DNA of 64,000 nt from an uncultured Bdellovibrionales bacterium (GTDB taxonomy: Bacteria > Patescibacteriota > Minisyncoccia > Moranbacterales > UBA1568). Under the pieces are notes generated by a model. That model worked only from the letters and a program-made list of their open reading frames with translations, did no database searches and was not told the DNA's origin. A program made the translations under genes and the position numbers. Location: contig CAZGXN010000003.1 in the NCBI GenBank assembly GCA_964530135.1, positions 42,942 to 106,941 on the forward strand, written 5' to 3'. This document shows, piece after piece, positions 10,055 to 64,000 of this stretch (positions are counted from its first letter, which is position 1; every line of letters starts with the position of its first letter).

Positions 10055-10076
10055 CAGGCCAGGTAAAATCAGATCC

Positions 10077-16994: not shown

Positions 16995-17008
16995 CAGACA
17001 TATCCCAC

Positions 17009-17091: not shown

Positions 17092-17157
17092 CAGACCGAG
17101 ACCCTGTTGTATCAACCAGGATATTCGCTCAGAGTCTTGAAATAAAACAAGGATTTT

Positions 17158-22685: not shown

Positions 22686-22758
22686 TGGACCATACCGGAT
22701 TCGAACCGGTCACCCCTTCCATGCCATGGAAGTGCTCTACCAAATGAGCTAATGGCCC
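22686..22758 (-). tRNA. tRNA-Ala (anticodon GGC) with the G3:U70 identity pair.
   Basis: The reverse complement reads GGGCCAT TAGCTCATTTGGTAGAGCA CTTCC-ATGGCAT-GGAAG ...ACCGG-TTCGAAT-CCGGT ATGGTCC A. Confidence 0.8.
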
Positions 22759-26906: not shown

Positions 26907-27037
26907 TTGGTAGAAAGGTGTGAAGATTTTCTTTTCTCGCCACACAACTTGTTGTGTGTTTGAGTGATTGTTTGTACTGTAGTTGTTTTGCTCCAGAGGC
27001 CAAGGATCATCTCTGTCGGACCGTCTGAAAATGAGAG

Positions 27038-27111
27038 TGGGCTTGCCCAGATTCGAACTGGGGACCTCTACAATGTCAATGTAGCGCTCTAACCAACTGA
27101 GCTACAAGCCC
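27038..27111 (-). tRNA. tRNA-Val (anticodon GAC).
   Basis: The reverse complement reads GGGCTTG TA GCTC AGTTGGTTA GAGC G CTACA-TTGACAT-TGTAG AGGTC CCCAG-TTCGAAT-CTGGG CAAGCCC A. Confidence 0.85.
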
Positions 27112-40876: not shown

Positions 40877-40902
40877 CATTTGAAAATCAGAAAGAGTATA
40901 CT

Positions 40903-40926
40903 AAGAAGAGGGTAACCTCTTCTTTT
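40903..40926 (+). terminator. Rho-independent terminator after pnp.
   Basis: AAGAAGAGG-GTAA-CCTCTTCTT followed by TTGTATTTT. Confidence 0.5.
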
Positions 40927-40933
40927 GTATTTT

Positions 40934-42160: not shown

Positions 42161-42276
42161 GCCGTATTAAAAAAAGTCTCGCACTTAATTCCTCAGGAGA
42201 TACAGTAGAGGCTGCACTTCTTGTATTGCAAGGATGAGAAAAAATCGCGCCGTAGAGATATTTTTCGCCCATAAGA

Positions 42277-42305
42277 TTGACTTGAGTGATTTTTTCTGCT
42301 ATACT
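42277..42305 (+). promoter_or_regulatory. Strong sigma70-like promoter (TTGACT, 17-nt spacer, TATACT) at the head of a roughly 500-nt non-coding stretch.
   Basis: TTGACT at 42277-42282, a 17-nt spacer, then TATACT at 42300-42305. Confidence 0.45.
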
Positions 42306-42311
42306 AGATCT

Positions 42312-42812
42312 ATCGAAGTGAGAAAGTTACTTGAAAATATAATCTGAACAGCGAAAGACCTCTCTTCCGCAGCTTGTTGTGGGGTGGAGAAGTCTTTCAC
42401 TGTTTAACCGTTCGGTGCATCGTCACCAGCTGCTCCTATTCTGGTCTGGAGCGTGCCGCCAAAACAAAAACAAAAAAGTTGAGAAAAATAATATTACGCT
42501 CAACCTCGAAACAAAAAAAAACAACAAAAACCAGTACCTTCAAAAAATTGTTTGGCATAGCCAAAGAACGGTGAAAGATCAGGATACAACCAGAAATGTC
42601 CTATTTGCGTGGGCATCAAACCACATACCTCTCACGGTGGAAGCGAATTGCCTCTCACCCGGGCTATACTTCTCCAGAGATATGTTGGGCACACGCACGC
42701 TGGGCGCTTGTACAGCCAATTTTTTTAAAATATTGGGCGTCGTCAAGCGCCCGGCACCAACACTTTTCAGCTGGGCTGAAGGAATGTAAATGGCTTATAA
42801 GAGCCTTTTTTT
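42312..42812 (+). ncRNA. Candidate non-coding transcript of unassigned class, bounded by the promoter above and a weak hairpin plus T7 at 42792-42812. It contains a perfect GTTGAG...CTCAAC hairpin and A-rich tracts.
   Basis: No convincing ORF is present; the 136-aa and 66-aa track ORFs are K/N-rich translations of A-runs. There is a hairpin at 42478-42507. No RNase P or tmRNA signature could be matched by eye. Confidence 0.2.
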
Positions 42813-42889
42813 GTTGCTAAAAAGATGAGAGCACCTCTATAAATATCGAAGTGATTTTTTTGAGTCTTTGATATACTCGAGTTAGTGGG

Positions 42890-43291
42890 ATGGTTTATAT
42901 TTCGGGATGTATGTTGCAACAGAATATCGGTCAATCAGGGGAAGAAGTGGCTGCTACCTATCTTAAAAAATCTGGATATCAGATTTTGGATCGGAATTAT
43001 GCCAATGTTCGGGGGATTCGGCTGGGTGAGATTGATATTGTTGCTGAAAAAGACAAACACATCGTTTTTGTTGAGGTGAAGGCAGCTTGGATCGAAGCGG
43101 GTAGAGAATCGCGTCTTCCGGAGTGGCAAGTAACCCGGGGAAAACTCCGAAAAATGGAGAAGATTGCAAACATCTACCTCAAAGAGAAACGGTTGGAAGA
43201 TCGAGAGTATTCTTTCGATGTCGTGGCAGTAACCTTTTTTTCAATGGGAGAACCAGAGATAAGACACTTGGATCATGTCTTTTTCTCATAG
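42890..43291 (+). CDS. yraN: YraN-family (UPF0102) predicted endonuclease.
   Basis: GEEVAATYLKKSGYQILDRNYANVRGIRLGEIDIVAEKDKHIVFVEVKA is the YraN signature. Confidence 0.7.
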   Translation: MVYISGCMLQQNIGQSGEEVAATYLKKSGYQILDRNYANVRGIRLGEIDIVAEKDKHIVFVEVKAAWIEAGRESRLPEWQVTRGKLRKMEKIANIYLKEKRLEDREYSFDVVAVTFFSMGEPEIRHLDHVFFS

Positions 43292-43341
43292 ACAGATAGG
43301 GGTGAATCATTTATACTTAAGCTAACTTTAATGGAACATAT

Positions 43342-43692
43342 ATGGCTTTAGATTCGGTTACCTTGGCTCATTTGAAGGAAAAACTGCTCGCTGAAAAATC
43401 TCGGCTTGAAGGTGAGCTTGGTCGTTTTGCGAAACCGTCTGGCACGGAGGGAAATTATACAACTCAGTTTGAAAATATCGGGACGGATCCCGATGAAAAT
43501 GCCAGCGAGGTTGAAGAGTATGTTGATACGCTTGCGATCGAGGGGTCGCTTGAGGCCGAGCTTCGAGATGTGAATATCGCGTTGGCAAAAATGGAGAATG
43601 GAAAATACGGATTTTGTGAAAAGACCGGTGAGGTCATCCCGCTTGAGCGTCTCGAGGCCTATCCTGCTGCCCGGACACTAGTTGGCGCCTGA
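43342..43692 (+). CDS. DksA/TraR-family C4 zinc-finger protein.
   Basis: 116 aa. A coiled-coil N-terminus is followed by MENGKYGFCEKTGEVIPLERLEAYPAARTLV; the C..C zinc-finger portion is visible. Confidence 0.65.
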   Translation: MALDSVTLAHLKEKLLAEKSRLEGELGRFAKPSGTEGNYTTQFENIGTDPDENASEVEEYVDTLAIEGSLEAELRDVNIALAKMENGKYGFCEKTGEVIPLERLEAYPAARTLVGA

Positions 43693-43701
43693 ATTCCCAC
43701 T

Positions 43702-44130
43702 ATGTTTGCTTTGCGACTGAGAACGGTGCCTGCCGTTCTCAGTTTTTTTCTACTGTTGGGGATATTGGATATGGCACTTCGCTTCGGACTTTTTCCAGCG
43801 GTCCGGACGATCTGTAATGCTGGTATCGCTTGGGGAATAGCTTTACCAGCGCCAGCACTCTGGTTCGGAGTCAGTCTGTGTTTAGTTATCGTCATTTTGA
43901 ATGCGTGCTGGGCGTCCTCTGTCGGCCAGCGTTTGGCTTGGATGGCCATCGTACTAGGTGGGGGGGTGAACACTGCTGACCGACTGTATCACGGTTGTGT
44001 GGCAGATTATTTTCACCCCCTACTCTTTCCAAGTTTTAATGTGGCTGATATGATGATTTTTCTCGGGGTTCTGTTTCTTCTAGTCTCAGTTTCAGGAATA
44101 TTTCCTAAGATAAAATCCTATGGCGGCTAA
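43702..44130 (+). CDS. lspA: Lipoprotein signal peptidase II.
   Basis: 142 aa with four TM helices. The conserved motifs are NAGIAWGI and FNVADMMIFLGV. Confidence 0.75.
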   Translation: MFALRLRTVPAVLSFFLLLGILDMALRFGLFPAVRTICNAGIAWGIALPAPALWFGVSLCLVIVILNACWASSVGQRLAWMAIVLGGGVNTADRLYHGCVADYFHPLLFPSFNVADMMIFLGVLFLLVSVSGIFPKIKSYGG

Positions 44131-45652: not shown

Positions 45653-46600
45653 ATGAAAAGTACTTTGTGGATCGTTTTTATTGCGGTTGCCGCTTTCTTC
45701 TCCTGGGTGATGATGACCCCTCCATTTGCCGATTCGAGGGAAGTGTTTTTGGTGGGTCGGCCACTGCCGGCTGCCGTCGTGCTTTCAGGGATGCGCTACC
45801 CATTCGTCTTTGATGCTGGATTGACGGTCGCCGAGGCATTGAATCGCGCTGGATTTCAGTGGCAGGATGGCGATGAGGTTTTTCCGGCGGCCGAGAGTCA
45901 GTTATTGGCTGGGACAACGATATTTTGGGCACCAGTTCGGACGATACATGTTTCGGCTGATGCGAGCAAACAAACGGTCTCAGTACTTGCACCGACGAGT
46001 GAAGGGATTATTGCTGAAATAGGGCTGGTGCTTGATGAGGATGATATCGTCGTACCGGCGCGCGAGGTGACGGTTTCAGAAGGTGAGACGATTGTTATCA
46101 CGCGAGTCGAAATTCGGGAAGAAACGAAAGAGGTTAAGATTCCATTTACAACCAAGACTGAGGAAGATGCAGAGCTGTCGTGGCGGAAGAAAATTGTGAA
46201 ACAAAAAGGTGAAAATGGCACCAAGACAACTACCTATCGTGTAAGCTATCATAATGGCAAAGAGGTGAATCGGAAGCTACTTTCAACTGAGGTAACGAAA
46301 GAGCCGGCGATGGAGATCGTGACGCAGGGAACCTATGTAAAAACCGGCAAAAGCCATCGGGGCGCGGCGTCATGGTATGCTTGGACCGGAACCATGGCCG
46401 CGGCCAATCCGTGGCTCCCCAAAGGCAGTTTTGTAAAAGTGACGAATCTTGATAATGGCAAATCGGTCATCGTCGTCATCAATGATCGCGGGCCGTTCGT
46501 CCCAGGGCGTATCATCGATCTCGACCGTGTCGCCTTTGAAAAGATCGCCTCGATCGGCGCTGGTGTCATCAATGTAAAAATGGAAGAGATCGTGAATTAG
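45653..46600 (+). CDS. YabE-like cell-wall protein (DUF348/G5-like region plus a C-terminal 3D/RlpA-like double-psi beta-barrel).
   Basis: N-terminal TM anchor. The C-terminus reads GAASWYAWTGTMAAANPWLPKGSFVKVTNLDNGKSVIVVINDRGPFVPGRIIDL. The position next to ksgA mirrors the Firmicutes yabE-ksgA synteny. Confidence 0.65.
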   Translation: MKSTLWIVFIAVAAFFSWVMMTPPFADSREVFLVGRPLPAAVVLSGMRYPFVFDAGLTVAEALNRAGFQWQDGDEVFPAAESQLLAGTTIFWAPVRTIHVSADASKQTVSVLAPTSEGIIAEIGLVLDEDDIVVPAREVTVSEGETIVITRVEIREETKEVKIPFTTKTEEDAELSWRKKIVKQKGENGTKTTTYRVSYHNGKEVNRKLLSTEVTKEPAMEIVTQGTYVKTGKSHRGAASWYAWTGTMAAANPWLPKGSFVKVTNLDNGKSVIVVINDRGPFVPGRIIDLDRVAFEKIASIGAGVINVKMEEIVN

Positions 46601-51693: not shown

Positions 51694-52653
51694 CTATTTC
51701 TTCTTCCGCTTGCCGTGAAAGGACTGATGAACTTCTTTCAGGCGTTCATTGGTAACATGGGTATAGATCTGTGTCGTGGTGATAGAGGCATGACCGAGCA
51801 TCGCCTGGACGGATCGGATATCTGCACCATTCATGAGGAGGTCAGTGGCAAAACTGTGCCGGAGCGTATGGGGATGGACATCTTTTACAATGCCGGCTTT
51901 TTTCGCATAGTGTTTCACGAGTCGAGCGATCGTTCGGGGAGTCAGTCGGAGGGTTTCGCGCGCAGCATTCCTTTTGTTGACCAAGCCTCGCTTGGGGTGG
52001 GCAACGAATAGAGCGGGGTCGATATCGGATCGGTGCTCGAGGTAGTGTGCGATGGCCGTTTTAGCGCTTTTGGAGAGAAACACGATGCGCAGTTTTGAAC
52101 CCTTGCCCCGGACGCTAAATTCATCCTTGGCGAGATTCACCTGATCGCGATTGAGGCCTGTGAGCTCTGAGACGCGGAGACCAGCTGAAAAGAGAAGCTC
52201 GAGCAGTGCTCGGTCGCGCCGACTTCGGAGAGTGTCTCCGGTCGGAGCAGCGAGGAGTCGTTCAATTTCATCAGACTCAAGGAATTCAACCTGGCGCTCA
52301 GGTATTCGGCCAATTTCAATCTTTTCAGCGGGCAGGGTTTCGATATCGTGTTTTGCGAGATACTTGAGAAAAGTCCGAAGAACGATAATATGATGGGCCT
52401 GCGTGCTCTTTTTGAGTGTGCTACCAGGCTTGGTCTCACGCCGATTGAGGGCGAGTCGGTACTGGCGGATCTGCTCAGCGGTGATATCGCTGGGGTGGTG
52501 GATATCGCCCCATGTAAAGAAGGCCTGTAGTGTTCGTTGATAGCTATCAATAGTACGATGGGAGCGATTCATCTCGATTTCGAGGTGGTCGAAAAACGCC
52601 TGGGCGAGTCGTTCAATTTCAGTTTTTTGTTTGGAAGGTGAGTGGTCAGACAT
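51694..52653 (-). CDS. xerD: Tyrosine recombinase of the XerC/XerD family.
   Basis: 319 aa. An N-terminal SAM-like domain. Catalytic residues in GLRVSEL, HTLRHSFAT and LGHASITTTQIYTHV. Confidence 0.85.
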   Translation of the reverse strand: MSDHSPSKQKTEIERLAQAFFDHLEIEMNRSHRTIDSYQRTLQAFFTWGDIHHPSDITAEQIRQYRLALNRRETKPGSTLKKSTQAHHIIVLRTFLKYLAKHDIETLPAEKIEIGRIPERQVEFLESDEIERLLAAPTGDTLRSRRDRALLELLFSAGLRVSELTGLNRDQVNLAKDEFSVRGKGSKLRIVFLSKSAKTAIAHYLEHRSDIDPALFVAHPKRGLVNKRNAARETLRLTPRTIARLVKHYAKKAGIVKDVHPHTLRHSFATDLLMNGADIRSVQAMLGHASITTTQIYTHVTNERLKEVHQSFHGKRKKK

Positions 52654-52773: not shown

Positions 52774-54117
52774 TTGATTCTGCCGTATGCTACAGCTTGT
52801 AACTCTTGGGGGAAATCCCGGATGTGCCGCTCTCATTCAGATACTCGAGCGGGGCTAGGGGATTATCCTAACAGAAAGGGTGGACCTATTTTTTCACACT
52901 TGATATCTCGGGCCCGGCGTTCCTGGCGGAGCGTACGACAGCTGGTTGATTTTGCCCGTTGGAATACGGTTTTTCACCAGGGACAGACCCGATTTCTTGT
53001 CTGGTTCAAGGAAGGTTCCGGCTATATTCCGGTCATTCTTTTTCGTAAATATTCAACCTTTTCGCTCGTAGTTTCTTCGGCCCTCCTGGTCTCAGCGACC
53101 AATTACGGTCAAGAAGTCGGTGGTCTCGAGCGTCTCTCGGCCTCGCTCAATGTCAATCTGCCCAGTGAGAATCGCGTTGTGTTGCGCCGTGCGGCCCAAG
53201 AATCCCAGCAACATAATCTCTCACTTGTTTCATTGGCGGCGCCCTTGCTCGCGGCTGATATGTCCGTTCAGACGGAAACCAATGTTCTGGATGAGGCTTA
53301 TTTGTCGCCTGAAAATCAGATGTTTATCGCTCAGGCGGTAGGTGCCAATAGCGCTCGTGATCCTGAAGAAGATGGGGGCGTGAAAATCTACACCGTAGCA
53401 GCCGGTGATACGGTATCTGGCATCGCTGCGGTCCATGGGGTAACGGTCAATACGATTCTCTGGGCAAATGATCTCGACAATGTTGATTCGATCAGGCCGG
53501 GTGATCAGATCTTTATTTTGCCGGTTGCTGGATTCAACTATACAGTCAAAAGCGAAGATACAATTGACTCTATCGCTGCCAAGTATAAAGCGGACCGAAG
53601 CCGCATCATTGCCTATAATGGACTACCGGCTAATGGTGATCTGACGGCTGGAACAGAGCTTATTATCCCTGACGGAGTAAAAGAGAGCGCTCCAGCGGCA
53701 CCCGTAACCACAGGGTTGGCGCGACGCGAGTATGCATCACAGACAGGGAGTGGGGTCGCGACAGATATCACTCCGAGTTTTGCGCGGCCGCGTGAAGGGA
53801 AGATTGGGCAAGGGCATCGTTTTCCATATGGTTATTGCACCTGGTATGTCGCTCAGAAGCGATATGTCCCGTGGGGTGGCAATGCGGGTACCTGGCTCTA
53901 TAATGCGCGTGCCCAGGGCTACAAAACTGGAAAAACACCGACGGTGGGTTCAATTGTTGTAACGACTGAGAATCGGTTTTATGGGCATGTCGCACTGGTT
54001 GAGAAGGTGAGTGGCGATATGATCACAGTGTCTGAAATGAACTATACTGGCTGGGCAAAAAAAAGCGTGCGTCAATTATCTCGCTCGAGTCGGGTGATCA
54101 AGGGGTATATTTACTAG
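52774..54117 (+). CDS. Membrane-anchored peptidoglycan hydrolase with two LysM domains and a C-terminal CHAP amidase/peptidase domain. It is the likely VirB1-like lytic enzyme of the adjacent T4SS. The true start is probably internal.
   Basis: LysM 1 is YTVAAGDTVSGIAAVHGVTVNTILWANDL...GDQIFILP. LysM 2 is YTVKSEDTIDSIAAKYKADRSRIIAYNGL...GTELIIP. The CHAP domain is GYCTWYVAQKR...GHVALVEKV. Confidence 0.7.
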   Translation: MILPYATACNSWGKSRMCRSHSDTRAGLGDYPNRKGGPIFSHLISRARRSWRSVRQLVDFARWNTVFHQGQTRFLVWFKEGSGYIPVILFRKYSTFSLVVSSALLVSATNYGQEVGGLERLSASLNVNLPSENRVVLRRAAQESQQHNLSLVSLAAPLLAADMSVQTETNVLDEAYLSPENQMFIAQAVGANSARDPEEDGGVKIYTVAAGDTVSGIAAVHGVTVNTILWANDLDNVDSIRPGDQIFILPVAGFNYTVKSEDTIDSIAAKYKADRSRIIAYNGLPANGDLTAGTELIIPDGVKESAPAAPVTTGLARREYASQTGSGVATDITPSFARPREGKIGQGHRFPYGYCTWYVAQKRYVPWGGNAGTWLYNARAQGYKTGKTPTVGSIVVTTENRFYGHVALVEKVSGDMITVSEMNYTGWAKKSVRQLSRSSRVIKGYIY

Positions 54118-54322
54118 CTGATTTGTGGGAAAGGGTGGAGCGAAGACGGTTACAAGAATGAGTGGGGAGGATGGTGAGGCAAGAAAAGCAGCGGGTTTCA
54201 ATGCCTCTCCTTGAGTTTCAGCGCTTGATCCCCGCCACTCTCTTCTTTGTGTGTCCCAATCCTGTGGGCTTGTGGTATACTATTTTTGTATCCGATGTCG
54301 TCGTCTGTATCGCTGCGTACTT

Positions 54323-56338
54323 ATGCGTTGGGTGAAACAAAATACAAAAAAAATTCTCATTGGTTTTTTTGCGTGTGCACTCATTGTTCAGAGTGGTGCT
54401 GTTGCGGTCCAGCCAGTCTTTGCTACTGCCCCGACAGTTGGCAGTCAGATCGAAACCAGTGCTCAAGCGGCTGGCAATCCAAACTCCCCTCCGACCGGCA
54501 ATGAGATAGAGGGAGGTTGTTCCTGGTATAATTGGCTTGCCTGTGGTAAAGACCTTATCGTCTGGTTTTTGAAAGAGATCCGCGATCTTATCTATCGCGG
54601 TTTTGCTGTTCCGGCCGCGGCGGGATTTGCCTGGGCGCTGAATCCGGCCAATATCTCTGGACCGACTGGAGTGTTGAATCTCTCGGCAGTCTATACTCTC
54701 TGGCAGTTTATCCGAGATTTCTTCAATCTCTTTTTCATTCTCATCCTCCTTTTTTCGGCTTTTGCGACAGTTTTCCAGGTGGATAGTTTCAATATCCGCA
54801 ATATCTTCAAAAATGTCCTCTTGGTCGCACTGCTCATCAATTTCAGCTTTCCAATTACTCGATTTCTCATTGATGCGGCCAATGTGCCGATGTACTACTT
54901 CATCAATGATGTGATCGGTGATGGCACGGGGAATGGTGGTATGATCGCCATGAATAACATGCTCCGACACTCGGGTGCCGGCGCGGGCGCCATGGTTACT
55001 ACCGGAGACAACAGCAGTGTCGTCCAGATTCTCTTGTCGATTATTTTCGTTTTTTTATTTGGTATCTCGCTCCTGGTGTTGGCGGTGATGATGATTATCC
55101 GTCTCCTCGCGCTCACATTATTGCTGATCTTTTCACCGATTGGCTTTGCCTCGGCGCTGCTCCCGGGACTCAATGAATATGGCCAACGATGGTGGAGCAA
55201 CTTTTGGAACTATGCACTGTTTGGACCGGCGGCCGCGCTCATGCTCGTAGTGTCATTGAAGTTTCTCGAGGCGAGCGGATCACTCTTTACCTCGATGCAG
55301 CAGGTATCGACCAATGTCAGTGTCGACCCGAGCGGAGCTACTTCGGTGGCTCAGGTCATTTTCTTCACGATCCCGATTATCCTCATCTGGTTTACTATCG
55401 GCCTGGCGAGCAGGTTCAGTGTGGCTGGTGCCGCGACCGTCGTCGGCCTCGGCTATGGCGCCGCACATTGGACGCGGAAGAAGCTACAGAAAGGTGTGGG
55501 ATTTGTCGGCAAGAAGGTCGTCGTTAATCCTGTTACCAGGGGAGTGGGGAGCGGTATCGCCCAACGTTTCAATGACAACAAGATAGTGAAGTATGTAAAA
55601 TCTCCAGGCAAGGTTGAGGCGCGGATCAGAGGGGCTGTTGGTACTGGTACCGTCAGTGGAGAATTGGGTAAACTCCATGAGCAGCAGGTAAGGAGAGAGC
55701 TGGATGAATTGAAGAAGAACAAGGCGAGTTATTCTGAGGCTCGGGCGGGAATGACAAGTGGGAATCAGGCATCACGTCAGGCAAACGCAATGTATCTTGC
55801 TCAGAATGATGATATCCGAAACGCAAGTGATTTTAGAGATGGACTCGCTGCTATGGCGGGCAATGCAGAATTTACCAGTGAATTTGTTAAAAAATCTCAA
55901 GGAGCGATTGATAATGTTACGGACTTGGCGACAGCTCTCAATGCCCTGGGCACTGACAGCAAGACTGCCGCAGCAGTTATCGATAAGATAAATCCAGGCG
56001 CCCTCCCTGCGAATTCAGCTGACTATGCGTCAATCCTTGCAGCCCCAGCCTTTACTTCCCCAGCTTCACAGAAGCAACTTCAGAGTAAGATGAAGAAAGA
56101 GGGTCGGATAAGTTCAGTGATAGATCATGAGGTTAGGACGACAGGCGCGAGTATGGCTTCGGTGGTTGATCGCCATTTGGATAGCATGACAGTCGAAGAG
56201 ATAGCAAAACAAGATAGCTTACTTCGGAGCAATCCTGATGCGCACGGCTATGTACTCGGTCTAAGGACGAGTGACCCAGCAAAGTATCAAGAGATTAAAA
56301 ATAAGATGAAATCGGGTACAAGTGCATTGTTTCCGTGA
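54323..56338 (+). CDS. VirB6/TrbL-like polytopic inner-membrane T4SS channel protein with a hydrophilic C-terminal extension. The track ORF starts at 54251 with GTG; the ATG at 54323 gives a signal or TM start.
   Basis: MRWVKQNTKKILIGFFACALIV followed by at least 7 TM helices in a VirB6-like arrangement, then about 250 aa hydrophilic. It lies in an operon with the VirB4 gene. Confidence 0.55.
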   Translation: MRWVKQNTKKILIGFFACALIVQSGAVAVQPVFATAPTVGSQIETSAQAAGNPNSPPTGNEIEGGCSWYNWLACGKDLIVWFLKEIRDLIYRGFAVPAAAGFAWALNPANISGPTGVLNLSAVYTLWQFIRDFFNLFFILILLFSAFATVFQVDSFNIRNIFKNVLLVALLINFSFPITRFLIDAANVPMYYFINDVIGDGTGNGGMIAMNNMLRHSGAGAGAMVTTGDNSSVVQILLSIIFVFLFGISLLVLAVMMIIRLLALTLLLIFSPIGFASALLPGLNEYGQRWWSNFWNYALFGPAAALMLVVSLKFLEASGSLFTSMQQVSTNVSVDPSGATSVAQVIFFTIPIILIWFTIGLASRFSVAGAATVVGLGYGAAHWTRKKLQKGVGFVGKKVVVNPVTRGVGSGIAQRFNDNKIVKYVKSPGKVEARIRGAVGTGTVSGELGKLHEQQVRRELDELKKNKASYSEARAGMTSGNQASRQANAMYLAQNDDIRNASDFRDGLAAMAGNAEFTSEFVKKSQGAIDNVTDLATALNALGTDSKTAAAVIDKINPGALPANSADYASILAAPAFTSPASQKQLQSKMKKEGRISSVIDHEVRTTGASMASVVDRHLDSMTVEEIAKQDSLLRSNPDAHGYVLGLRTSDPAKYQEIKNKMKSGTSALFP

Positions 56339-56358: not shown

Positions 56359-57510
56359 GTGAGTGGAGATACTGTAAAAAACATCCTTTTCTTTCCAATG
56401 CTTGTCTCTGAAAGTGGGACAGGTGAGGCTATGACGCCAGAAGTTTCGGAAGAATTATGGATGAAACTTCGAAATCTATCTCCTAATAAGCGAGACATTC
56501 TTGTCTGTCGAGAATTGCCCCAGAAGCTCCTGATTCTCAAGGAGAAGTTAAATTTGGATGAAAAAGCTATAGGCCGTATCAGTTTGGTGATTCGGAAGAT
56601 TTTTTTTAACGAACTTGATCTTGCTGGTGCTGAGGCTAAGATTGCTTCGATGCTTGGGGCGGGTGGAGCAGAGAATCCGAACCATGCTAAGGCTATTGTT
56701 GAGTTTATTAAAAAAGAAATACTAACCATTAAGCCAGTAAAAGAAGTCGTGCCAGATGAATCTTTGTCAAGTGAGCCAGTTATCAAAACCGCGCGGCTGC
56801 CGCTCCTCAAGGCGATGAGTGAGTACCCGCATTTGTCAGAACAACTCTTGACCAGAGAAAAGATCAAATTGAAATCATCGACGGAACCGGTGCGACCATC
56901 GCTTGGGAATTGGCTGAAGAGCTATCGTGAAGAGCTCGGTATCGGGTTCCATGAGCCAGTCAAGCGGGGAAATTTTCTCTTTCAATCCCAGAATGGCAAG
57001 CGTCTGTCCAATGAGGAGCGAGCGAGATTCAATCTCATCTTGAAGTCGGTCGAAGAGGAATTTCCGCTTGACATCGATACGGAACGCCAGGCAATAGTCT
57101 TTCCATCGTCTGGCGATGTGGCGATGGAGCTGACTCAGATCCGAACCAATCCATCCCAGCCTACTCCAAACAGGATGATTCGAGCACGGGGTCTGTCGAC
57201 CAGTCTACCGGCCTCTGAAACTACACCAGAAACATCTTCACCAACCGCCTTTCAGTCCTTCAAACCACTGTTTGCGAAATCAGTATCGCCGGAGAAGAAT
57301 GTTTCAGGTGAGACATTACATTTCTCTACAGGGCATGTGTTGCCAGCGGAACGCGAGGCGGGCGCTCCAACATCCGATGGGAGCGAGGCACTCCGTCAGA
57401 TGCAGCATCCGACGCAGGGTATTCGGCGTGAACCCAATCCAGCGCTTTCTCGGAGTCCGTACTCGATCCGTCCGCTCCGTCCTCGGAGTGGGGACAATGA
57501 AAACGCCTAG
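56359..57510 (+). CDS. Hypothetical soluble protein inside the T4SS-like operon, with a Pro/Ser/Thr-rich C-terminus.
   Basis: 383 aa. It starts 20 nt after the VirB6-like stop. No motif was recognised. Confidence 0.5.
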   Translation: MSGDTVKNILFFPMLVSESGTGEAMTPEVSEELWMKLRNLSPNKRDILVCRELPQKLLILKEKLNLDEKAIGRISLVIRKIFFNELDLAGAEAKIASMLGAGGAENPNHAKAIVEFIKKEILTIKPVKEVVPDESLSSEPVIKTARLPLLKAMSEYPHLSEQLLTREKIKLKSSTEPVRPSLGNWLKSYREELGIGFHEPVKRGNFLFQSQNGKRLSNEERARFNLILKSVEEEFPLDIDTERQAIVFPSSGDVAMELTQIRTNPSQPTPNRMIRARGLSTSLPASETTPETSSPTAFQSFKPLFAKSVSPEKNVSGETLHFSTGHVLPAEREAGAPTSDGSEALRQMQHPTQGIRREPNPALSRSPYSIRPLRPRSGDNENA

Positions 57511-57603: not shown

Positions 57604-57999
57604 ATGATGTTCAGCGTCCCCCAGTTTATTGATGTTGAAGACAAAATTGCTGGCCCACTCACTTGGCGTCAGTTGTTGTGGATGATCGGGATGGGGATTC
57701 TTCTCCTCGTCATATACAATACTATCGGTACAGCTGGTTTTTTGATTGTGGCGGTCCCGATTGTCTTACTGTTTTGTGCCCTAGCCTTTTATCGGCCACA
57801 GGGTCAACCGCTCATTGTGTTTCTCTTCCATGGATTTACCTATTTCTTCCGGCCGAAAATTGCTGTCTGGGAGCGCCCAATAGCCCGCCGCCAGGCAGCT
57901 CCTGAGGTTGAAGCTGCTCCCGTGAAAGCAGCGGCGAAAGCCAAACAGCTTTCACCAGAAGCTCTCCGCGATTTGGCTCGGCTCATGGACACCCACTAG
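57604..57999 (+). CDS. PrgI/VirB3-like small two-TM T4SS protein.
   Basis: 131 aa. MMFSVPQFIDVEDKIAGPLTWRQLLWM is followed by two TM helices and a basic tail. It sits immediately upstream of VirB4, as VirB3/PrgI does. Confidence 0.5.
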   Translation: MMFSVPQFIDVEDKIAGPLTWRQLLWMIGMGILLLVIYNTIGTAGFLIVAVPIVLLFCALAFYRPQGQPLIVFLFHGFTYFFRPKIAVWERPIARRQAAPEVEAAPVKAAAKAKQLSPEALRDLARLMDTH

Positions 58000-58008
58000 T
58001 TTTCATGT

Positions 58009-58683
58009 ATGGAATTTCTCTCTAAGAAAAAATCTGGCAGTTTGAGTACACAGCGATATGTCGATGTCGAAGAGCTGCGTGATGGCGTTCTCGTTCTCAA
58101 AACCGGAGCGCTGCGGGCGGTACTCCTTGTCTCATCGATTAATTTTGATCTGAAATCGAGCGAAGAACAGGATGCGATTATTTCTCAGTATCAGAATTTC
58201 CTCAATTCACTGGATTTTCCCATTCAAATTGTCGTGCAGTCTCGCCGGTTCAATATCGATCCGTATATCGAACTCCTCCGTGGGAAAGAGGCACAGCAGG
58301 CCAATGAGCTCCTTCGATTCCAGATGAAAGAGTACCAAAGCTTTATCAGGAACCTGACGGATGTTTCGAATATTATGTCGAAGTATTTTTATGTTGTTGT
58401 ACCATTTTCACCAGTTGAAAATGTCGAGACGGGATTTTTCGGAAAAATGGGAGACATTTTCAATCAGCGGAAAACCGTCGGCCTCAAAAATGAATTGTTT
58501 GATACCTACCGAACACAGATCATGCAGCGCGTCGAACATATTGTCGCGGGTCTTTCTCCGATGGGAATCCGCGCAACAGCCCTGGGCACCGAAGAATTGA
58601 TCGAGCTCCTCTACAATAGTTATAATCCATCACTCTTTGCATCAACGATCGTGAAAAATGTCGAGGCGATTGAGCTCCAGTAA
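58009..58683 (+). CDS. VirB4-family N-terminal domain encoded as a separate ORF (the N-terminal piece of a split VirB4).
   Basis: 224 aa. VDVEELRDGVLVLKTGALRAVLLVSSINFDLKSSEEQDAIISQYQNFLNSL resembles the N-terminus of Gram-positive VirB4 proteins (TraE/PrgJ). It ends with TAA at 58681-58683. Confidence 0.55.
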   Translation: MEFLSKKKSGSLSTQRYVDVEELRDGVLVLKTGALRAVLLVSSINFDLKSSEEQDAIISQYQNFLNSLDFPIQIVVQSRRFNIDPYIELLRGKEAQQANELLRFQMKEYQSFIRNLTDVSNIMSKYFYVVVPFSPVENVETGFFGKMGDIFNQRKTVGLKNELFDTYRTQIMQRVEHIVAGLSPMGIRATALGTEELIELLYNSYNPSLFASTIVKNVEAIELQ

Positions 58684-58687
58684 ACTT

Positions 58688-60919
58688 ATGGGACGAGAAC
58701 TGATTATTTTTGACCGGCCAATCAAGAAAGTATCCGTGGTTGATCCGATGAATATCGCGACCCCTGGTCTTGGTGAGCTTTCTGTACCGCCTCGCTCACG
58801 TGGCCAAGCGGGAGCCGCCCTGCCATCCGCGCGTGCCACAAATGCCGATGGAGTCCGGCCACCCCAGCCAGATGATACTGTGCTGCCGACCGACATCCAC
58901 TCAGAGAAAGTGGCATCAGCTCCAGCGAGTCCAGTTTCGCGTCGAGCGCCAGAGCCACGCGAGACAGTCTCAGCTCCTGATCGAGGAGGAAGGCTTGCCC
59001 CACCAGAAAAGAATCGCGCCGTCTGGGCAGAGGAGGTTGTGGCCCAGGCTTTTCCAGTTGATAATCCATCGACTATCAAGTCGGAGAAAAAGAGTTTTCT
59101 TGGGAGTCTTTTTGGAAAAAAATCCCAGACCCCAGTTTTGGATACAAATCGGGAAACAGAACAGCTCTATCAGAAGGGTCTGGCAACGATCCGTGATCTC
59201 ATTGCTCCGCCAGCGATTCGAGTGAGTCCAGCGACCATGCAGATCGGCGATGTCGTCGCTCGGACACTGTTCATCATCGCGTACCCGCGGTTTCTTTCGA
59301 CCAATTGGTTTTCTCCGATTATCAATATCGACTTTCCGATGGATACGGCGCTGTTCATTCATCCGATAGATACAGCTGAAATCCTGAAACAACTCCGTAA
59401 ATCCGCGACCCAGGTGCAATCACAGATGAATATCGAAATTGAGGAGGGGAAGATCCGCGACCCAGTACTTGAGGCGGCGCTTCAAAATATTGAAGAATTG
59501 CGTGATCGTCTCCAGCAAGGGACAGAAAAGTTCTTTCGCTTTGGTCTCTATATGACGCTCTATGGGGCAGATGAGAAAGATCTCTCCCAAAAAGTGCAGT
59601 CGATTGAAGCGATTCTTGAGGCGCAGCTCGTGTATACCAAACCCGCTGTCTTGCGAATGGATGTTGGGTTTGCGTCGACTCGACCGCTGGCCAATGATGC
59701 ACTGGATGTGGCCAATAACCTCAACACTGAGCCGCTTTCGACTACTTTCCCCTTTGTCTCTTCAGATCTCTCCTCCAATGAGGGTATCCTGTATGGCATC
59801 AACCGGCATAACAATTCGCTTATTCTGTTTGATCGGTTCAAGATGGAAAATGCCAATATGGTGGTCTTTGCAAAGTCTGGTGCGGGTAAGAGCTATACGG
59901 TAAAACTTGAAGTTTTGCGGGCGCTCATGCTCGATACAAGCGTTATTATTATTGATCCAGAAAATGAATATAAGCATCTCTGTGAGACGGTCGGTGGAGC
60001 CTTTCTGAAAATTTCTCTCAACTCGGATATTCATCTCAATCCGTTTGATATGCCGAAAGTCGGTGCGGAAGAAGAGTCAGATGGCGTTTTCCGAAACACT
60101 ATTGCCAATCTCATCGGACTTCTCCACCTCATGCTCGGGACTTTATCAGCCGAAGAAGATTCGATCTTGGACCAGGCTATCCGTGAGGCGTATGCGATTC
60201 GTGATATTCACGAAGATTCAAATTTCGGCGCATTGCTTCCGAATTCCTTTCCAACAATGTCTGATCTGCATGCAGTCCTGAAGAATATGGAGGGTGCGGA
60301 TTCGATTGCTGCTCGACTGCGACGCTATACAGAGGGTATTTTCTCGGGTTTTCTGAATGAGCAGACGAATATCGATACGGATAACCAGCTTGTTGTCTTC
60401 AATATTCGAGATCTGGAAGAGGAACTCCGTCCGATTGCGATGTATATCATCCTTCAGTACATCTGGAATGATATTCGCTCAAAGCTTCGCCAACGCATCA
60501 TCGTCGTCGATGAGGCCTGGATCATGATGCAAAATGAGGATGCAGCCTCGTTCCTATTTGGCATCGCCAAGCGCTGCCGCAAGTACTACACTGGTCTTAC
60601 GACGATCACTCAGGACATCAGCGACTTTATGTCTTCGCGCTACGGCAAGCCGATTATCACCAACTCTTCGATGCAGCTGCTCCTCCGTCAATCACCCGCA
60701 TCGATTGACTATATCACCGAGACTTTTTACTTGACGGATCATGAGAAGTTTCTTCTGCTCGAGTCGAATGTGGGGGAAGGAATTTTCTTTGCCGGGACAA
60801 AACACGCCGCTATAAAAGTCATTGCTTCATATAGTGAAGATCAGATTATCACTTCGGACCCGCGTCAGCTTCTCGAAATTGAAGAAGCGAAGCGCGACTT
60901 CGATTCCAACAACCCTTAA
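58688..60919 (+). CDS. VirB4/TrbE/CagE-family T4SS ATPase (central and C-terminal ATPase domains) with a roughly 130-aa Pro/Ala/Ser/Arg-rich low-complexity N-terminal segment. The track ORF starts at 58658; the ATG at 58688 lies 4 nt after the upstream stop.
   Basis: Walker A is FAKSGAGKSYTVK. Walker B is RIIVVDEAWIMM. The middle region QIGDVVARTLFIIAYPRFLSTNWFSPIIN is VirB4-like. The reading frame differs from that of 58009..58683. Confidence 0.8.
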   Translation: MGRELIIFDRPIKKVSVVDPMNIATPGLGELSVPPRSRGQAGAALPSARATNADGVRPPQPDDTVLPTDIHSEKVASAPASPVSRRAPEPRETVSAPDRGGRLAPPEKNRAVWAEEVVAQAFPVDNPSTIKSEKKSFLGSLFGKKSQTPVLDTNRETEQLYQKGLATIRDLIAPPAIRVSPATMQIGDVVARTLFIIAYPRFLSTNWFSPIINIDFPMDTALFIHPIDTAEILKQLRKSATQVQSQMNIEIEEGKIRDPVLEAALQNIEELRDRLQQGTEKFFRFGLYMTLYGADEKDLSQKVQSIEAILEAQLVYTKPAVLRMDVGFASTRPLANDALDVANNLNTEPLSTTFPFVSSDLSSNEGILYGINRHNNSLILFDRFKMENANMVVFAKSGAGKSYTVKLEVLRALMLDTSVIIIDPENEYKHLCETVGGAFLKISLNSDIHLNPFDMPKVGAEEESDGVFRNTIANLIGLLHLMLGTLSAEEDSILDQAIREAYAIRDIHEDSNFGALLPNSFPTMSDLHAVLKNMEGADSIAARLRRYTEGIFSGFLNEQTNIDTDNQLVVFNIRDLEEELRPIAMYIILQYIWNDIRSKLRQRIIVVDEAWIMMQNEDAASFLFGIAKRCRKYYTGLTTITQDISDFMSSRYGKPIITNSSMQLLLRQSPASIDYITETFYLTDHEKFLLLESNVGEGIFFAGTKHAAIKVIASYSEDQIITSDPRQLLEIEEAKRDFDSNNP

Positions 60920-60924
60920 ACGCT

Positions 60925-61695
60925 ATGGCCGAGGATATTGATTCGGCGTTTGAACAGCTCCACCAGAGCAAATGGATGCAACTTCGGAACGCTACTCGTC
61001 TGGCTTTTGAACACCGGAAGAGAGTGGCGGCTGGTGATTTGTCGGTCTTCATTCTGCCATTAGCTCTGGCCATGGCTAAAGACGGACTTTTGGACTTCAT
61101 TCCGTTTATCGGGTTATTTTTCGGGCTTTTTATCACTACATACCTCTTTATTTTCATGTGGGGTCGGGGTCGGTGGATACTGCGCATCCTCTTCTTCTTT
61201 GTGGCTACTGTCGGTAATCTTCCTTTCATCAAACTCTTGCCTTTTGATACGATCAGCGTTCTCTTCGCTTATTTCTTGGCACGCAAAGATGTGGCAAAGG
61301 CCAAAGAGAAATTGGAGAAAGTTAATCAGGTGATACCGCGGCTGGCGGATGATCTCCGCGGTGTGGCGCGCCAGCGTGCGCGGGCCCAAGAGGCGGCCCA
61401 AGAGGCAGAGGCATCCGCTGCCCAAAGCGCTGCCCAGATGGATACAGCATCTCGCTCGCCTGAACGGTTAGTGGGAGCTGCTCCAGTACTCGCTGTCCCT
61501 CGGGGACAGGTAATACCTTCTCGTTCGGACCAGGCGACTGCGCTTCGTCATAGTCAAAGCGCGGTTAACGAAGCTACCTTGAGAATACAAGCTGCGGGAC
61601 GTCAATTGGCTCAGAGTTCTCTGGCGTATACAGCGGGTATGCGCCAGTCTGGAGCACCAAGAGGGGTTTCGGAAAAGCGGCAACGAGCGGTTTAA
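60925..61695 (+). CDS. Membrane protein in the T4SS-like operon (3 to 4 TM) with an Ala/Gln-rich coiled-coil C-terminus.
   Basis: 256 aa. It starts 6 nt after the VirB4 stop. TM helices are LSVFILPLALAMA, IPFIGLFFGLFITTYLFIFMW and ILFFFVATVGNLPFI. Confidence 0.5.
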   Translation: MAEDIDSAFEQLHQSKWMQLRNATRLAFEHRKRVAAGDLSVFILPLALAMAKDGLLDFIPFIGLFFGLFITTYLFIFMWGRGRWILRILFFFVATVGNLPFIKLLPFDTISVLFAYFLARKDVAKAKEKLEKVNQVIPRLADDLRGVARQRARAQEAAQEAEASAAQSAAQMDTASRSPERLVGAAPVLAVPRGQVIPSRSDQATALRHSQSAVNEATLRIQAAGRQLAQSSLAYTAGMRQSGAPRGVSEKRQRAV

Positions 61696-61790: not shown

Positions 61791-62453
61791 ATGGAACACT
61801 GGATGCGTCTGGTCATGCGGCACAAAGAGTTCATCGGCACTACGACGGTTGTAGTGGCGGCTATCTTTTTACTTGGGTACTTTCCAGAAAGTGAGAATGT
61901 GAGCCCGACACTGGAAAACTTTATAGTTGCGACTGGTGTGTTCTTGGTCATTCCGTTTGCCTATTGTAGAATAATGTTAGGGCGTTCTTTTTCAGCAATT
62001 GGGTTTCAGCGGGGGAATATCTGGGCTGGTGTAGGTGGAGGTCTCTTGGCGCTCATCGTCGCGCTAGCTGCTCTCTTCGTGCTCTGGAATTTTACCCCCT
62101 TACTCGCCGACTATCGTCTGCCCGTTATCGTCGAGGAGCAGTTTCTTTTCTTCGTTCTGTATGAAGTGTTTCTGAGCGGGTCTATCGTTTTCATGTTCGA
62201 GGTGTTCTTTCGAGGGTTTGTTATGCTGCTGTGGCTCCGGAAATGGGGCATCTGGTCTGTCGTCGCTCAGGCCGTTCTTTTCGGAACATTGATGTATGCT
62301 GGAAATGACCTGAGTGCGACGATGATTCCCTATCTTATCTTTGCCCCGTTCGCTGGTCTGATCGCTTATCAGTCCCGATCGATCTGGTACAGTTATGGGG
62401 CAGCGTGGTTCTATCTTTTTTTGACGGATGCCATCGTCCTTATCTTCCGCTGA
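61791..62453 (+). CDS. Polytopic membrane protein, possibly CPBP/Abi-family-like (weak).
   Basis: 220 aa with 6 TM helices. There is an E...R motif (FEVFFRG), but the canonical His motifs are not evident. Confidence 0.4.
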   Translation: MEHWMRLVMRHKEFIGTTTVVVAAIFLLGYFPESENVSPTLENFIVATGVFLVIPFAYCRIMLGRSFSAIGFQRGNIWAGVGGGLLALIVALAALFVLWNFTPLLADYRLPVIVEEQFLFFVLYEVFLSGSIVFMFEVFFRGFVMLLWLRKWGIWSVVAQAVLFGTLMYAGNDLSATMIPYLIFAPFAGLIAYQSRSIWYSYGAAWFYLFLTDAIVLIFR

Positions 62454-62455: not shown

Positions 62456-64000
62456 ATGTCGCGTACTATGCACAGAAAAAAACAGTTTCAACTCATTTCA
62501 GTTTTGATGAGTTTGCAGATATTTTTTACATCTGCACTACCGGCCGAAGCGCTTTTTTCTCGTCCGAGGGTGCCATCAGCCTCCCAATCCGCCTCTGAGC
62601 TCGAGGCACGCTATCATATCAATACTGGTGCGGTTCAGGAACAGGGCGAATCACTGAATGTCGCGGATAACAAAAAGGTTACGCCTGAAGTATCGCTTTT
62701 TTTCTCGCCTTCGGATCCCAAAGAAGGGGAGAGGGTAACAGCACGCTCTTTTCCAACTTATTTTGCCAACGATACAAGCAAGCTCTATTTTACTTGGTTC
62801 TTGCAAAGAGCTGACTGTCGACCGGGTAGCGCGGTTACGCCGCAGTGCGATCTCGATGGTAATGGTCTCATCAATCACAATGATTGGAAAATCATGGCCC
62901 ATCGGATCCTGGCATCCAATGATCTCGATTTGGCCAATGTCGGCTATGGAGCAGATACCGATGCCGATGGTTATACGGCCCGTTTCGGCGGAGACAATCG
63001 AGTCAATGTCCCCAACCACTGCTATTTCCATGACAATACGACTGGCGAGAACTATGAACTCTCAAGCGGCAGTGGTACAACCTCTTGGGCCTGTAATCCT
63101 GGACTCCAGCCGGTCTGTATGGTCGGGAGTATCGATGTGTCTTCCGGGACGCTGGATCTCAGTGCGGGTGGAGGGACATCAGATGCTTCGGGGAGCGGAT
63201 CGACTGGCGGTACGGCAACCGCGAGTGGTTCGGTAGTTGAGTTTATCGATGGAGATGCGTATGTCTCAGGCCTGCCCTATTGTCAGGCGAGCGGAGTGCC
63301 GGCTTGCGCTACGGGTGTGCCTTGCTGTGTCTCCAATCCAGCGACGGCCCGTGAGTGTACCCAAACCCTCGACACATGCAGTTTGCCAGTGGGCAGTCGG
63401 CCTAATCCGATTTGTCGCCACCTCTTTCCAGTAGCACCGGGCCATGTCGCGGGTGATGGGCTCTATAGTGCGAGTGAAGAGCAGTTTTGGCAAACTGATC
63501 CCAATGACCCTGATACGGCCGATAATGGGAACAAGGATGAGGCTAATATCACTGGTCTCGGGCGCGATACTTTCACCTGGAACTACATCTCAGGTGATCG
63601 TATCGGAGTCGTTGTCGAAGGTACCTCGATGATTCCAACCAAACACCAGGATTCTTCCAATGGCATCATGTGGGCGTTTTCTAAGAATCGCTGTCAGCCC
63701 TCTGGTCCAACAGGATCATACACGACAAACATCAAAGGATACGCTGTGGTTATTCCGACTATCGACATGGACCTCAACGACTGTCTCGAAGATAATCTCG
63801 TCGATCCGACTGAAGGTGGTCAAGCGACGAATCTGGAGCTCTCCGTTACAGCCTCGCCGGATGACCCGCTGAATGATGTGACCGTTCGGGCAGATGGAGA
63901 TGTTCTTGATGTGGTGGCCACGGTGAATAATGCCATCCAGGGTATCCAAGGGATCTACTATGATTGGCGGGTTGAATTGTCGTCTGATGGAACGGCAAAT
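62456..64000 (+). CDS. Partial CDS (more than 515 aa; the 3' end is beyond the window). It is a large secreted or surface protein with an EF-hand/dockerin-like calcium-binding loop and Cys-rich segments. It is absent from the ORF track because there is no in-window stop.
   Basis: ATG at 62456, 3 nt after the previous stop. The signal peptide is MSRTMHRKKQFQLISVLMSLQIFFTSALPAEA. DLDGNGLINHND fits the DxDxNGxIxxxD pattern. Hand translation finds no stop through position 64000. Confidence 0.6.
   Translation, partial: MSRTMHRKKQFQLISVLMSLQIFFTSALPAEALFSRPRVPSASQSASELEARYHINTGAVQEQGESLNVADNKKVTPEVSLFFSPSDPKEGERVTARSFPTYFANDTSKLYFTWFLQRADCRPGSAVTPQCDLDGNGLINHNDWKIMAHRILASNDLDLANVGYGADTDADGYTARFGGDNRVNVPNHCYFHDNTTGENYELSSGSGTTSWACNPGLQPVCMVGSIDVSSGTLDLSAGGGTSDASGSGSTGGTATASGSVVEFIDGDAYVSGLPYCQASGVPACATGVPCCVSNPATARECTQTLDTCSLPVGSRPNPICRHLFPVAPGHVAGDGLYSASEEQFWQTDPNDPDTADNGNKDEANITGLGRDTFTWNYISGDRIGVVVEGTSMIPTKHQDSSNGIMWAFSKNRCQPSGPTGSYTTNIKGYAVVIPTIDMDLNDCLEDNLVDPTEGGQATNLELSVTASPDDPLNDVTVRADGDVLDVVATVNNAIQGIQGIYYDWRVELSSDGTAN

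Follow-up and report, generated by a model that had tools for sequence, protein, structure and literature searches.

INTRODUCTION

Surface adhesins encoded in type IV secretion system (T4SS) operons are already a known kind of protein; TIEpLS20, from the conjugation operon of pLS20, combines a Sec signal with an N-terminal binding domain and an immunoglobulin (Ig)-like stalk (PMC8092201). Here we analyze a protein that, by analogy, is best described as a variant of that kind. It is encoded at the end of a 64,000-nucleotide (nt) stretch of DNA (the window; contig CAZGXN010000003.1, positions 42,942 to 106,941) from a Moranbacterales genome deposited as an uncultured Bdellovibrionales bacterium, in the open reading frame (ORF) that starts at ATG 62456 on the forward (+) strand, and we refer to the product as the stalk protein. 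From its sequence, its structure models, and its likeness to known systems, we favor, with moderate confidence, the reading that the stalk protein acts as a membrane-anchored host-contact (adhesin-like) accessory of the Moranbacteria T4SS, which is of the mating-pair formation FATA (MPF-FATA) type.

Like TIEpLS20 and PrgB of pCF10, the stalk protein is encoded inside a monoderm-type T4SS cluster and appears to be exported by Sec, with an AEA-type cleavage site (PMC8092201, PMC12857230). In all three, an N-terminal head is followed by Ig-like stalk domains, and the cell-cell contact role of the two plasmid proteins may extend to the stalk protein. Unlike them, it contains neither a thioester, CnaB, or polymer-adhesin domain nor an LPXTG motif, and it has instead a novel head with DxDxDG loops, a Cys-rich modular insert, a transmembrane (TM) anchor motif of its own, and an obligate partner gene encoding a CPBP-like protein; no sequence or specific fold relationship to TIEpLS20 or PrgB was detectable. 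A second likeness is to TraA/MrtX (MYXO-CTERM), which shares a variable head, a Cys-rich region, a tripartite C-terminus, and a link to the CPBP family, and to the MrtJ/JDVT-CTERM cassettes, in which, as here, one enzyme-family gene accompanies one target (PMC11980579). In contrast to both, the neighbor of the stalk protein is without the catalytic residues, the anchor has no invariant Cys and matches no sorting model, and the setting is a T4SS locus in a monoderm bacterium from the Candidate Phyla Radiation (CPR). SiiE and the cadherins resemble the stalk protein in having a tandem beta-sandwich rod and acidic cation-type loops, but the stalk protein has three stalk domains rather than tens, its loops lie in the head and not at inter-domain junctions, and the TM-scores are about 0.1. 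SiiE, moreover, is a type I secretion system substrate, whereas the stalk protein has the features of the Sec pathway and a TM anchor.

In Saccharibacteria, the one lineage tested, the T4SS is essential for epibiotic growth (PMC10633639), and a survey of Patescibacteria T4SSs reported TrsD, PrgI, VirB6, and VirB2-like pilins but "no adhesins" (PMC12102498). Our literature search found no paper linking Moranbacteria, a T4SS, and such a surface protein. The stalk protein is thus a concrete candidate for the missing host-contact function of CPR T4SSs; it is unusual in having a head without a specific relative among solved structures, a site at which modular inserts concentrate, and a partner with the CPBP fold that lacks catalytic residues.

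RESULTS AND DISCUSSION

The open frame and the full gene

The frame remains open from ATG 62456 to the end of the window at 64000 (515 codons), as an earlier note on the window had reported; the chance of such a run in random sequence is (61/64)^515, or about 2e-11, and no overlapping ORF on either strand of the region is longer than 157 aa. Contig L082 (145 kb) showed 0 mismatches to the window over 11,533 shared nt, and L082, L001, and L083, from three assemblies, encode one and the same 949-aa stalk protein. The gene ends 434 codons (1,305 nt) beyond the window, at virtual position 65305, with its stop codon at L082:12836-12838. An alternative start at ATG 62468 (Met5) gives a 945-aa call (P0080) that is otherwise the same protein.

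62456..64000, + strand: stalk-protein gene, first 515 of 949 codons (open frame and identical contigs L001, L082, and L083)

Because the identical contigs carry the complete ORF, the protein is 949 aa long and not giant, as the earlier note had it, and its relatives are of similar size (about 800 to 1300 aa); we therefore discarded the giant-adhesin reading. By that note, its reading would be refuted if the frame ended soon after position 64000 with no more domains; the stop does come 1,305 nt on, but three further beta-sandwich domains and an anchor are present. Overall, its account of the gene was largely right and is partly confirmed, with the size overstated; absent from it were a better-conserved second DxDxDG loop, the C-terminal membrane anchor, and the CPBP-like gene 2 nt upstream.

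Signal peptide, head, stalk, and anchor

Residue numbers below are those of the 949-aa protein, and the alignment used for conservation and for AlphaFold2 held 134 sequences. Part boundaries were read from the DSSP strings of the AlphaFold2 models, from conservation, and from profile-profile comparison of segments. The model of the full protein had a pLDDT of 86.6 and a pTM of 0.53, and that of the window-encoded half had a pLDDT of 85.6 and a pTM of 0.72.

62456..62551, + strand: signal peptide of Sec type at residues 1-32, with the basic n-region RTMHRKK, a hydrophobic core, and the cleavage motif A-E-A (...SALPAEA/LF)
62579..62674, + strand: two conserved N-terminal helices, residues 42-73 (E-x-RYH...Q-x-QGE-x-FNV; DSSP of both AlphaFold2 models and the consensus)
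62687..63832, + strand: head domain, residues 78-459, with a core Ig-like beta-sandwich that a large insert interrupts
63833..64000, + strand: beginning of stalk domain D2 (about 460-608), of which residues 460-515 fall inside the window
L082:12665-12790, beyond the window: C-terminal anchor, residues 893-934

Sequence features and models show the stalk protein as a predicted Sec-exported, membrane-anchored protein with a large beta-rich ectodomain and a positive-inside tail. The signal peptide that the earlier note had seen is supported by the basic n-region, hydrophobic core, and A-E-A motif of residues 1-32; the family consensus around the putative cleavage site, P-A-x-A-L-F, is conserved, and AlphaFold2 models the N-terminus as a helix followed by a low-confidence linker. 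We rejected a lipoprotein reading, as there is no Cys near the signal peptide, and LPXTG-type wall anchoring, as the motif is absent.

The head is the best-conserved part of the protein and is followed by three beta-sandwich (Ig-like) stalk domains, D2 (about 460-608), D3 (about 609-746), and D4 (about 747-886), of which D3 and D4 lie beyond the window. D3 and D4 are diverged duplicates (hhalign 92%), and the first strands of the head are similar to D2 (hhalign 89%). The anchor consists, in order, of a conserved amphipathic juxtamembrane helix, Arg/Lys, a 20-residue TM helix, and a tail with more K/R than D/E; its signature is K-Y-x-A-x-x-x-S-Y-x-P-x-S-x-x-F-x-x-R, and the basic tail has a mean of 3.3 K+R. 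No Cys of the stalk protein lies after residue 696, and the anchor has no invariant Cys.

Fold searches with Foldseek returned generic Ig arrays, adhesins, and S-layers, including the Ca-binding adhesin SiiE and cadherins. The best match, an archaeal (N. maritimus) Ig-array S-layer protein (E 8e-9, TM-score 0.13), reflects generic Ig-array similarity.

A variable, modular tip

Three features of the variable part of the head are listed here.

63020..63415, + strand: Cys-rich head insert between invariant C189 and C320, a variable modular tip
63161..63232, + strand: Gly/Ser/Thr-rich hypervariable loop inside the insert, residues 236-259 (pLDDT <50)
63281..63340, + strand: CQASGVPACATGVPCCVSNP paired-Cys motif inside the insert, residues 276-295

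Insert length in the family runs from 13 aa, where the module is absent, up to 381 aa, with most members at 80-160 aa. It is the fastest-diverging folded region among close relatives: in the nine closest, identity to the stalk protein is 57% in the insert, compared with 80-82% in the head core, 75-79% in the stalk, and 83% in the anchor. The Gly/Ser/Thr-rich stretch of the earlier note corresponds to residues 236-259, where the family alignment has 59% gaps and a mean identity of 14%. Its paired Cys motif is likewise present, as CQASGVPACATGVPCCVSNP; C276, C284, and C291 are each found in 90% of relatives and C290 in just 14%.

In two relatives the insert carries a module of another kind. P0145 (residues 298-461) has a Laminin_G_3/ConA-like lectin domain nested in it (1.7e-27), and P0118 (residues ~230-560) has six Kelch-like repeats there, with a weak Kelch-type NCBIfam match. 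Both modules sit within the same conserved Cys framework. A conserved scaffold combined with a fast-evolving, module-swapping, membrane-distal tip is what one would expect in a protein that binds a ligand or a cell.

Putative cation sites and disulfides of the head

62849..62884, + strand: EF-hand/dockerin-type 12-residue loop DLDGNGLINHND, residues 132-143 (C121/C131 pair before it, helix 141-154 after it)
62954..62992, + strand: second DxDxDG-type loop DTDADGYTARFGG, residues 167-179, more conserved than the first
63488..63547, + strand: acidic loop W-x-T-D-P-x-D-P-D-T-A-D-N-G-N-K-D-E-A-N, residues 345-364, highly conserved

The DxDxNGxIxxxD loop from which an EF-hand/dockerin-like protein had been proposed is present at residues 132-143, where DLDGNGLINHND has the features of a 12-residue EF-hand loop (ligand residues at 1, 3, 5, and 12, Gly at position 6, and a hydrophobic side chain at position 8). 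It is conserved in the 134 relatives (D 90%, D/N 93%, D/N 89%, G 72%, I/V 84%, and D 99%), and 77 of them keep the strict pattern. Like the loops of EF-hands and dockerin F-hands, it follows the canonical D-x-D-x-N-G-x-I-x-x-x-D pattern and has a helix after it; it differs from them in being a single copy that lacks both an entering helix and a second F-hand segment to pair with. Only the exiting helix of an EF-hand helix-loop-helix is predicted. Pfam EF-hand_1 gave sub-threshold matches in 5 of 30 family members (best E 0.049) and none in the stalk protein itself, Pfam Dockerin gave no match at E<=1, and the second DxDxDG loop (167-179) is without a following helix. With a single loop-helix, sub-threshold EF-hand matches, and no dockerin match, membership in the EF-hand/dockerin family did not hold up, and a dockerin/cohesin system is ruled out by the presence of one F-hand segment only.

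The second loop, DTDADGYTARFGG, is strongly conserved (D169 99%, D171 99%, G172 93%, Y173 99%, and G178 and G179 100%). So is the acidic loop at 345-364 (T354 and D361 100%; K360, E362, and A363 99%; most positions >87%), which we take to resemble a thrombospondin-type-3 (TSP3) repeat; Pfam TSP_3 matched it neither in the stalk protein nor in 30 relatives. This loop is a candidate third cation site. Of the 18 Cys of the stalk protein, 17 are conserved in at least 81% of relatives, which fits extracytoplasmic disulfides.

The CPBP-like partner

61791..62453, + strand: 220-aa polytopic CPBP (Rce1-like) fold protein, with its stop 2 nt before the stalk-protein ATG

Loci were compared by tblastn over 80 related loci with a 10-kb flank. 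A CPBP-like gene lies directly upstream of the stalk-protein homologue, on the same strand, in all 75 informative loci, the other 5 having <240 nt of upstream DNA. The fold assignment is sound because 27 of 53 members of the CPBP-like family match nearly the whole PF02517 profile (positions 3-90 of 93, best E 1.9e-7), some of them above cutoff (3 of 10 sampled members exceed the 22.4-bit gathering cutoff). The window copy itself has no Pfam match, and its NCBIfam match to MrtA ("archaeomyxosortase"; E=1e-5) is below cutoff.

The catalytic set of MrtX and MmRce1 comprises EExxxR, the motif-2 His, and HxxxN (PMC11980579). In the CPBP-like family, motif 1 reads [Y/F]-E137-x-F-F-R141-G, so that the first Glu of EExxxR is missing, and no column of the family alignment has a conserved His, the motif-2 His and HxxxN not being kept; the conserved polar residues are E125, E137, R141, Q160, S197, and D213. 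A PDB sequence-profile search with the family gave no match, so that its positions could not be aligned directly to those of MmRce1, and catalytic loss was therefore judged by the missing conserved His. We set aside an active CPBP sortase, as the catalytic residues are missing.

The C-terminus of the stalk protein does have the three elements of a sorting signal (signature, TM helix, and basic cluster). Curated NCBIfam sorting-domain models returned only noise (VPAMP-CTERM, E 0.26, in one relative), and an anchor hidden Markov model matched nothing in 1.43 Mb of DNA from Moranbacteria loci but the stalk-protein family. A global search with the 72-aa anchor alignment gave no matches and was underpowered, as family members themselves failed to pass. 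Since the catalytic set is lost, the anchor has no invariant Cys, no sorting model matches, and within those 1.43 Mb the anchor occurs in one family only, the CPBP-like protein is in our reading probably a pseudo-protease, binding or docking the anchor.

The T4SS block

52774..54117, + strand: LysM + CHAP peptidoglycan hydrolase with a VirB1-type role (Pfam LysM 1.4e-21, CHAP 1.5e-18; 39 loci, the 10-kb flank limiting this number)
54251..56338, + strand: 695-aa polytopic VirB6-like candidate (weak CD3337/EF1877 match, E=0.0011; multiple TM segments; 55 loci)
56359..57510, + strand: 383-aa soluble protein of unknown function (no TM segment, no family match; 58 loci)
57604..57999, + strand: PrgI/VirB3-like protein (Pfam PrgI 7.3e-11; 59 loci)
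58009..58683, + strand: TrsD-like / VirB4-N-terminal-like protein, 224 aa (NCBIfam TrsD 3.2e-7, VirB4 N-terminal regions; 62 loci)
58658..60919, + strand: VirB4-like ATPase (NCBIfam conju_CD1110 356 bits, cutoff 325; Pfam P-loop_TraG 8.5e-31; 65 loci)
60925..61695, + strand: 256-aa membrane protein of unknown function (hydrophobic segments; no family match)

The earlier note had placed the gene last in a T4SS-like operon, and this context is well supported, with VirB4 (356 bits), PrgI, the TrsD-like protein, and the LysM + CHAP hydrolase upstream and the terminal position kept in 65 loci. The components that define an MPF-FATA-type T4SS (VirB4, VirB3/PrgI, VirB6-like, hydrolase, and TrsD) are all found, the VirB6-like match being weak. 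VirB4, the TrsD-like protein, PrgI, the 383-aa protein, and the VirB6-like protein occur in the same order in 65, 62, 59, 58, and 55 loci, respectively, and the pair formed by the CPBP-like and stalk-protein genes closes the block in 65 of the 67 loci whose upstream sequence extends to 3.5 kb or more. On L082 the stalk-protein gene is followed by a 590-nt gap, a helix-turn-helix gene with its own promoter-like sites, and then aminoacyl-tRNA synthetase genes; given the gap and the promoter-like sites of the next gene, we take the stalk-protein gene to be the last of the block. A promoter/terminator scan after its stop showed no terminator-like site and gave no clear outcome.

No coupling protein (VirD4/TcpA) or relaxase, as a conjugative system would have, was found among the ORFs examined at window positions 38.7-64 kb or downstream on L082, in agreement with the survey of CPR T4SSs, which names TrsD as the commonest T4SS component in CPR/Patescibacteria (PMC12102498). 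The TrsD-like product on the identical contig L082 matches PF26593 (TraC-like). The VirB4 N-terminal region is present as a separate TrsD-like ORF, with a 26-nt overlap at the start of virB4; this split is conserved in 62 loci and is in keeping with the abundance of TrsD in Patescibacteria.

In its conservation within the block (58 loci), the 383-aa protein at 56359-57510 equals PrgI. It is a putative core component of this CPR T4SS that has gone unrecognised. The 256-aa protein, with a low-complexity Ala/Gln/Arg-rich C-terminus, has a homologue in only 7 of the 80 loci, so the slot between virB4 and the CPBP-like gene is variable, while the rest of the locus is rigid.

Proposed role and alternative explanations

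In the role that we favor, the stalk protein would be exported by Sec, lose its signal peptide, and adopt a type-I membrane topology, tethered by the juxtamembrane helix, the TM helix, and the basic cytoplasmic tail. The three Ig-like domains would form a rod outside the cell and hold the membrane-distal head, which may reach about 20 nm off the membrane by an estimate from the three domains and the head. Some eight disulfides, together with Ca2+ at the two DxDxDG-type loops and the TSP3-like loop, would probably stiffen the head. A ligand on the surface of a partner or host cell would be bound by the variable tip, which would keep that cell within reach of the secretion channel, while the CPBP-like protein would act without proteolysis as a membrane partner (dock or chaperone) of the anchor. 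We infer both adhesion and the anchor-CPBP interaction. The adhesin suggestion of the earlier note is plausible and now better grounded in the conserved head, the hypervariable modular tip (LamG in P0145, Kelch-like in P0118), and the modeled Ig-like stalk, and gene order and strand conserved with T4SS genes in 55-65 loci and the 2-nt gap to the CPBP-like gene also argue for it.

Several points weigh against an adhesin-like accessory. Searches of Pfam, NCBIfam, PDB, and folds gave no specific structural or sequence relative with a known binding function; the head core, the best-conserved region, could equally be a machine-docking surface; and Ca2+ binding and disulfides in the head are deduced from motifs only. 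In addition, two divergent loci, L061 and L076 (34-37% identity), carry the CPBP-like and stalk-protein pair with no T4SS genes nearby, so the pair is the tightest unit and T4SS adjacency is a rule but not an absolute one.

A more ambitious version of the favored role is that the pair forms a new host-recognition module of CPR T4SSs, in which a swappable tip (Cys-knot, lectin, or Kelch) sets partner specificity and a private anchor motif couples the receptor to a catalytically remodelled CPBP protein whose part is to dock it at the machine or pass it on. Taken jointly, these propositions are unlikely all to hold; if they do, the module would be a functional parallel, in an episymbiont, to TraA/MrtX cell-cell recognition, and heads could probe for the hosts of uncultured Moranbacteria. 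Recombinant heads could be used as host-fishing probes and the tip insert as a host-range marker, and the CPBP-like partner offers a test case for CPBP proteins that are non-catalytic.

The near-universal synteny with the T4SS core, the high conservation of the head core and anchor, and the specific intramembrane contacts that a conserved anchor suggests would also suit a structural extracellular subunit of the T4SS, that is, a channel collar or a stalk spanning the wall, which would take the place of the VirB8/TcpC- or VirB9/10-type parts undetected in CPR and form an oligomer around the VirB6-like pore, with no binding of other cells. VirB8 homologues are, moreover, scarce in Patescibacteria (PMC12102498). 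We consider such a subunit possible but improbable, as the fold searches linked the protein to neither VirB8 nor TcpC nor another part of a T4SS, a hypervariable tip that takes lectin or Kelch modules is atypical of a channel subunit, and the pair is kept without adjacent T4SS genes in L061 and L076.

Could the two genes instead be a dedicated sorting pair, in which the CPBP-like protein recognizes the C-terminal motif, the anchor is cleaved, and the stalk protein is re-anchored or released at the surface? CPBP sorting enzymes and single-target cassettes have been published (PMC11980579), and the strict two-gene neighborhood (75 of 75 loci), the tripartite C-terminus (K-Y-x-A...S-Y-x-P...F-x-x-R, TM helix, and basic tail), and the genuine CPBP fold match of the neighbor are what such a pair would present. 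The neighbor, however, has kept neither the first Glu of EExxxR nor the motif-2 His nor HxxxN, and has no conserved His at all; the anchor is without an invariant Cys, matches no NCBIfam sorting signal, and, across the 1.43 Mb of locus DNA, does not occur outside the stalk-protein family. Cleavage by this neighbor therefore seems to us distinctly unlikely.

More doubtful again is the view that the stalk protein serves Moranbacteria as a general envelope protein or S-layer-like coat and that its gene is no more than a neighbor of the T4SS block. Ca-type loops and C-terminal TM anchors are common in surface-layer proteins, the best Foldseek match (E 8e-9) is to an archaeal Ig-array S-layer, and in L061 and L076 the pair lies in a PNPase-LspA neighborhood without T4SS genes. 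The matches are generic, though, with very low TM-scores (0.13); Pfam and NCBIfam searches of the stalk protein and its relatives found no S-layer domain (SLH and similar); the gene keeps the same strand, a tight operon-like spacing, and the terminal position after virB4 in 65 loci; and the scan showed no separate strong promoter-like site just upstream of it.

Finally, that the stalk protein is a substrate or effector exported by the T4SS, as the earlier note had also suggested, is highly improbable, for although its locus position would allow it and Ptl is a precedent of Sec-exported T4SS cargo, the cleavable Sec signal and the conserved C-terminal TM anchor with its positive-inside tail indicate a surface protein retained by the cell, and the Ig-stalk architecture also speaks against cargo.

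Distribution of the family

A first search found 34 stalk-protein homologues at 90% clustering and a later one 259; at 50% clustering the family has 516 representatives, which are about 800-1300 aa long and of which 375 have E<=1e-30, and species-representative genomes held 146 loci with a homologue. Almost all homologues come from Candidatus Moraniibacteriota/Moranbacteria or unclassified Patescibacteria, and a scan of viral contigs found no relatives. Every named member is annotated "hypothetical protein." The window fragment, the full protein, and 30 relatives gave no significant match in Pfam or NCBIfam, and a PDB sequence-profile search with the stalk protein gave a chance-level match only (E 0.01). 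The family is uncharacterised and has no Pfam or NCBIfam model; with 516 representatives at 50% identity, it is therefore worth defining as one.

Many metagenome-assembled genome records titled "uncultured Bdellovibrionales bacterium" (L002, L004, L008-L015, and others) hold a T4SS locus of the Moranbacteria type, with up to 78% protein identity to the stalk protein, and their titles are probably mislabelled. Single, short contigs that bear the labels Zixiibacteriota, Saccharibacteria, Fimivivens, and Undibacterium seem to be mis-binned. In L061, a 303-aa ORF (L061:9351-10262) overlaps the stop of the stalk-protein homologue, and the tblastn match to the stalk protein runs on to the contig end; it may be a tandem partial paralogue or a frameshift.

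Other features of the window

Directly upstream of the pair in L061 and L076 are genes for polynucleotide phosphorylase (PNPase), a ~400-aa unknown protein, UPF0102, a DksA-type protein, and LspA. The same PNPase...LspA series is found at 38684-44130 in the window, at L061:362-5901, and at L076:2743-8024. In the window, about 18 kb separate LspA from the pair, so that, relative to L061 and L076, the T4SS block and six other genes make up an intervening segment. At the 5' edge of the block, just upstream of the LysM-CHAP gene, lies a tyrosine recombinase (51694-52653, - strand; Phage_integrase 5.7e-42), overlapped by a spurious 126-aa ORF on the opposite strand; the recombinase could be XerC/D-like housekeeping or the remnant of an integrative element. 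An RpfB-like protein (45653-46600; DUF348, G5, and a DPBB lytic transglycosylase domain) is encoded amid housekeeping genes and is a second cell-wall-remodelling enzyme near the T4SS block. The window also has ten tRNA genes (9245-10149, 16924-17092, 22369-22758, and 27037-27111), among them a cluster of five (Leu, Val, Phe, Met, and Gly) within 900 nt.

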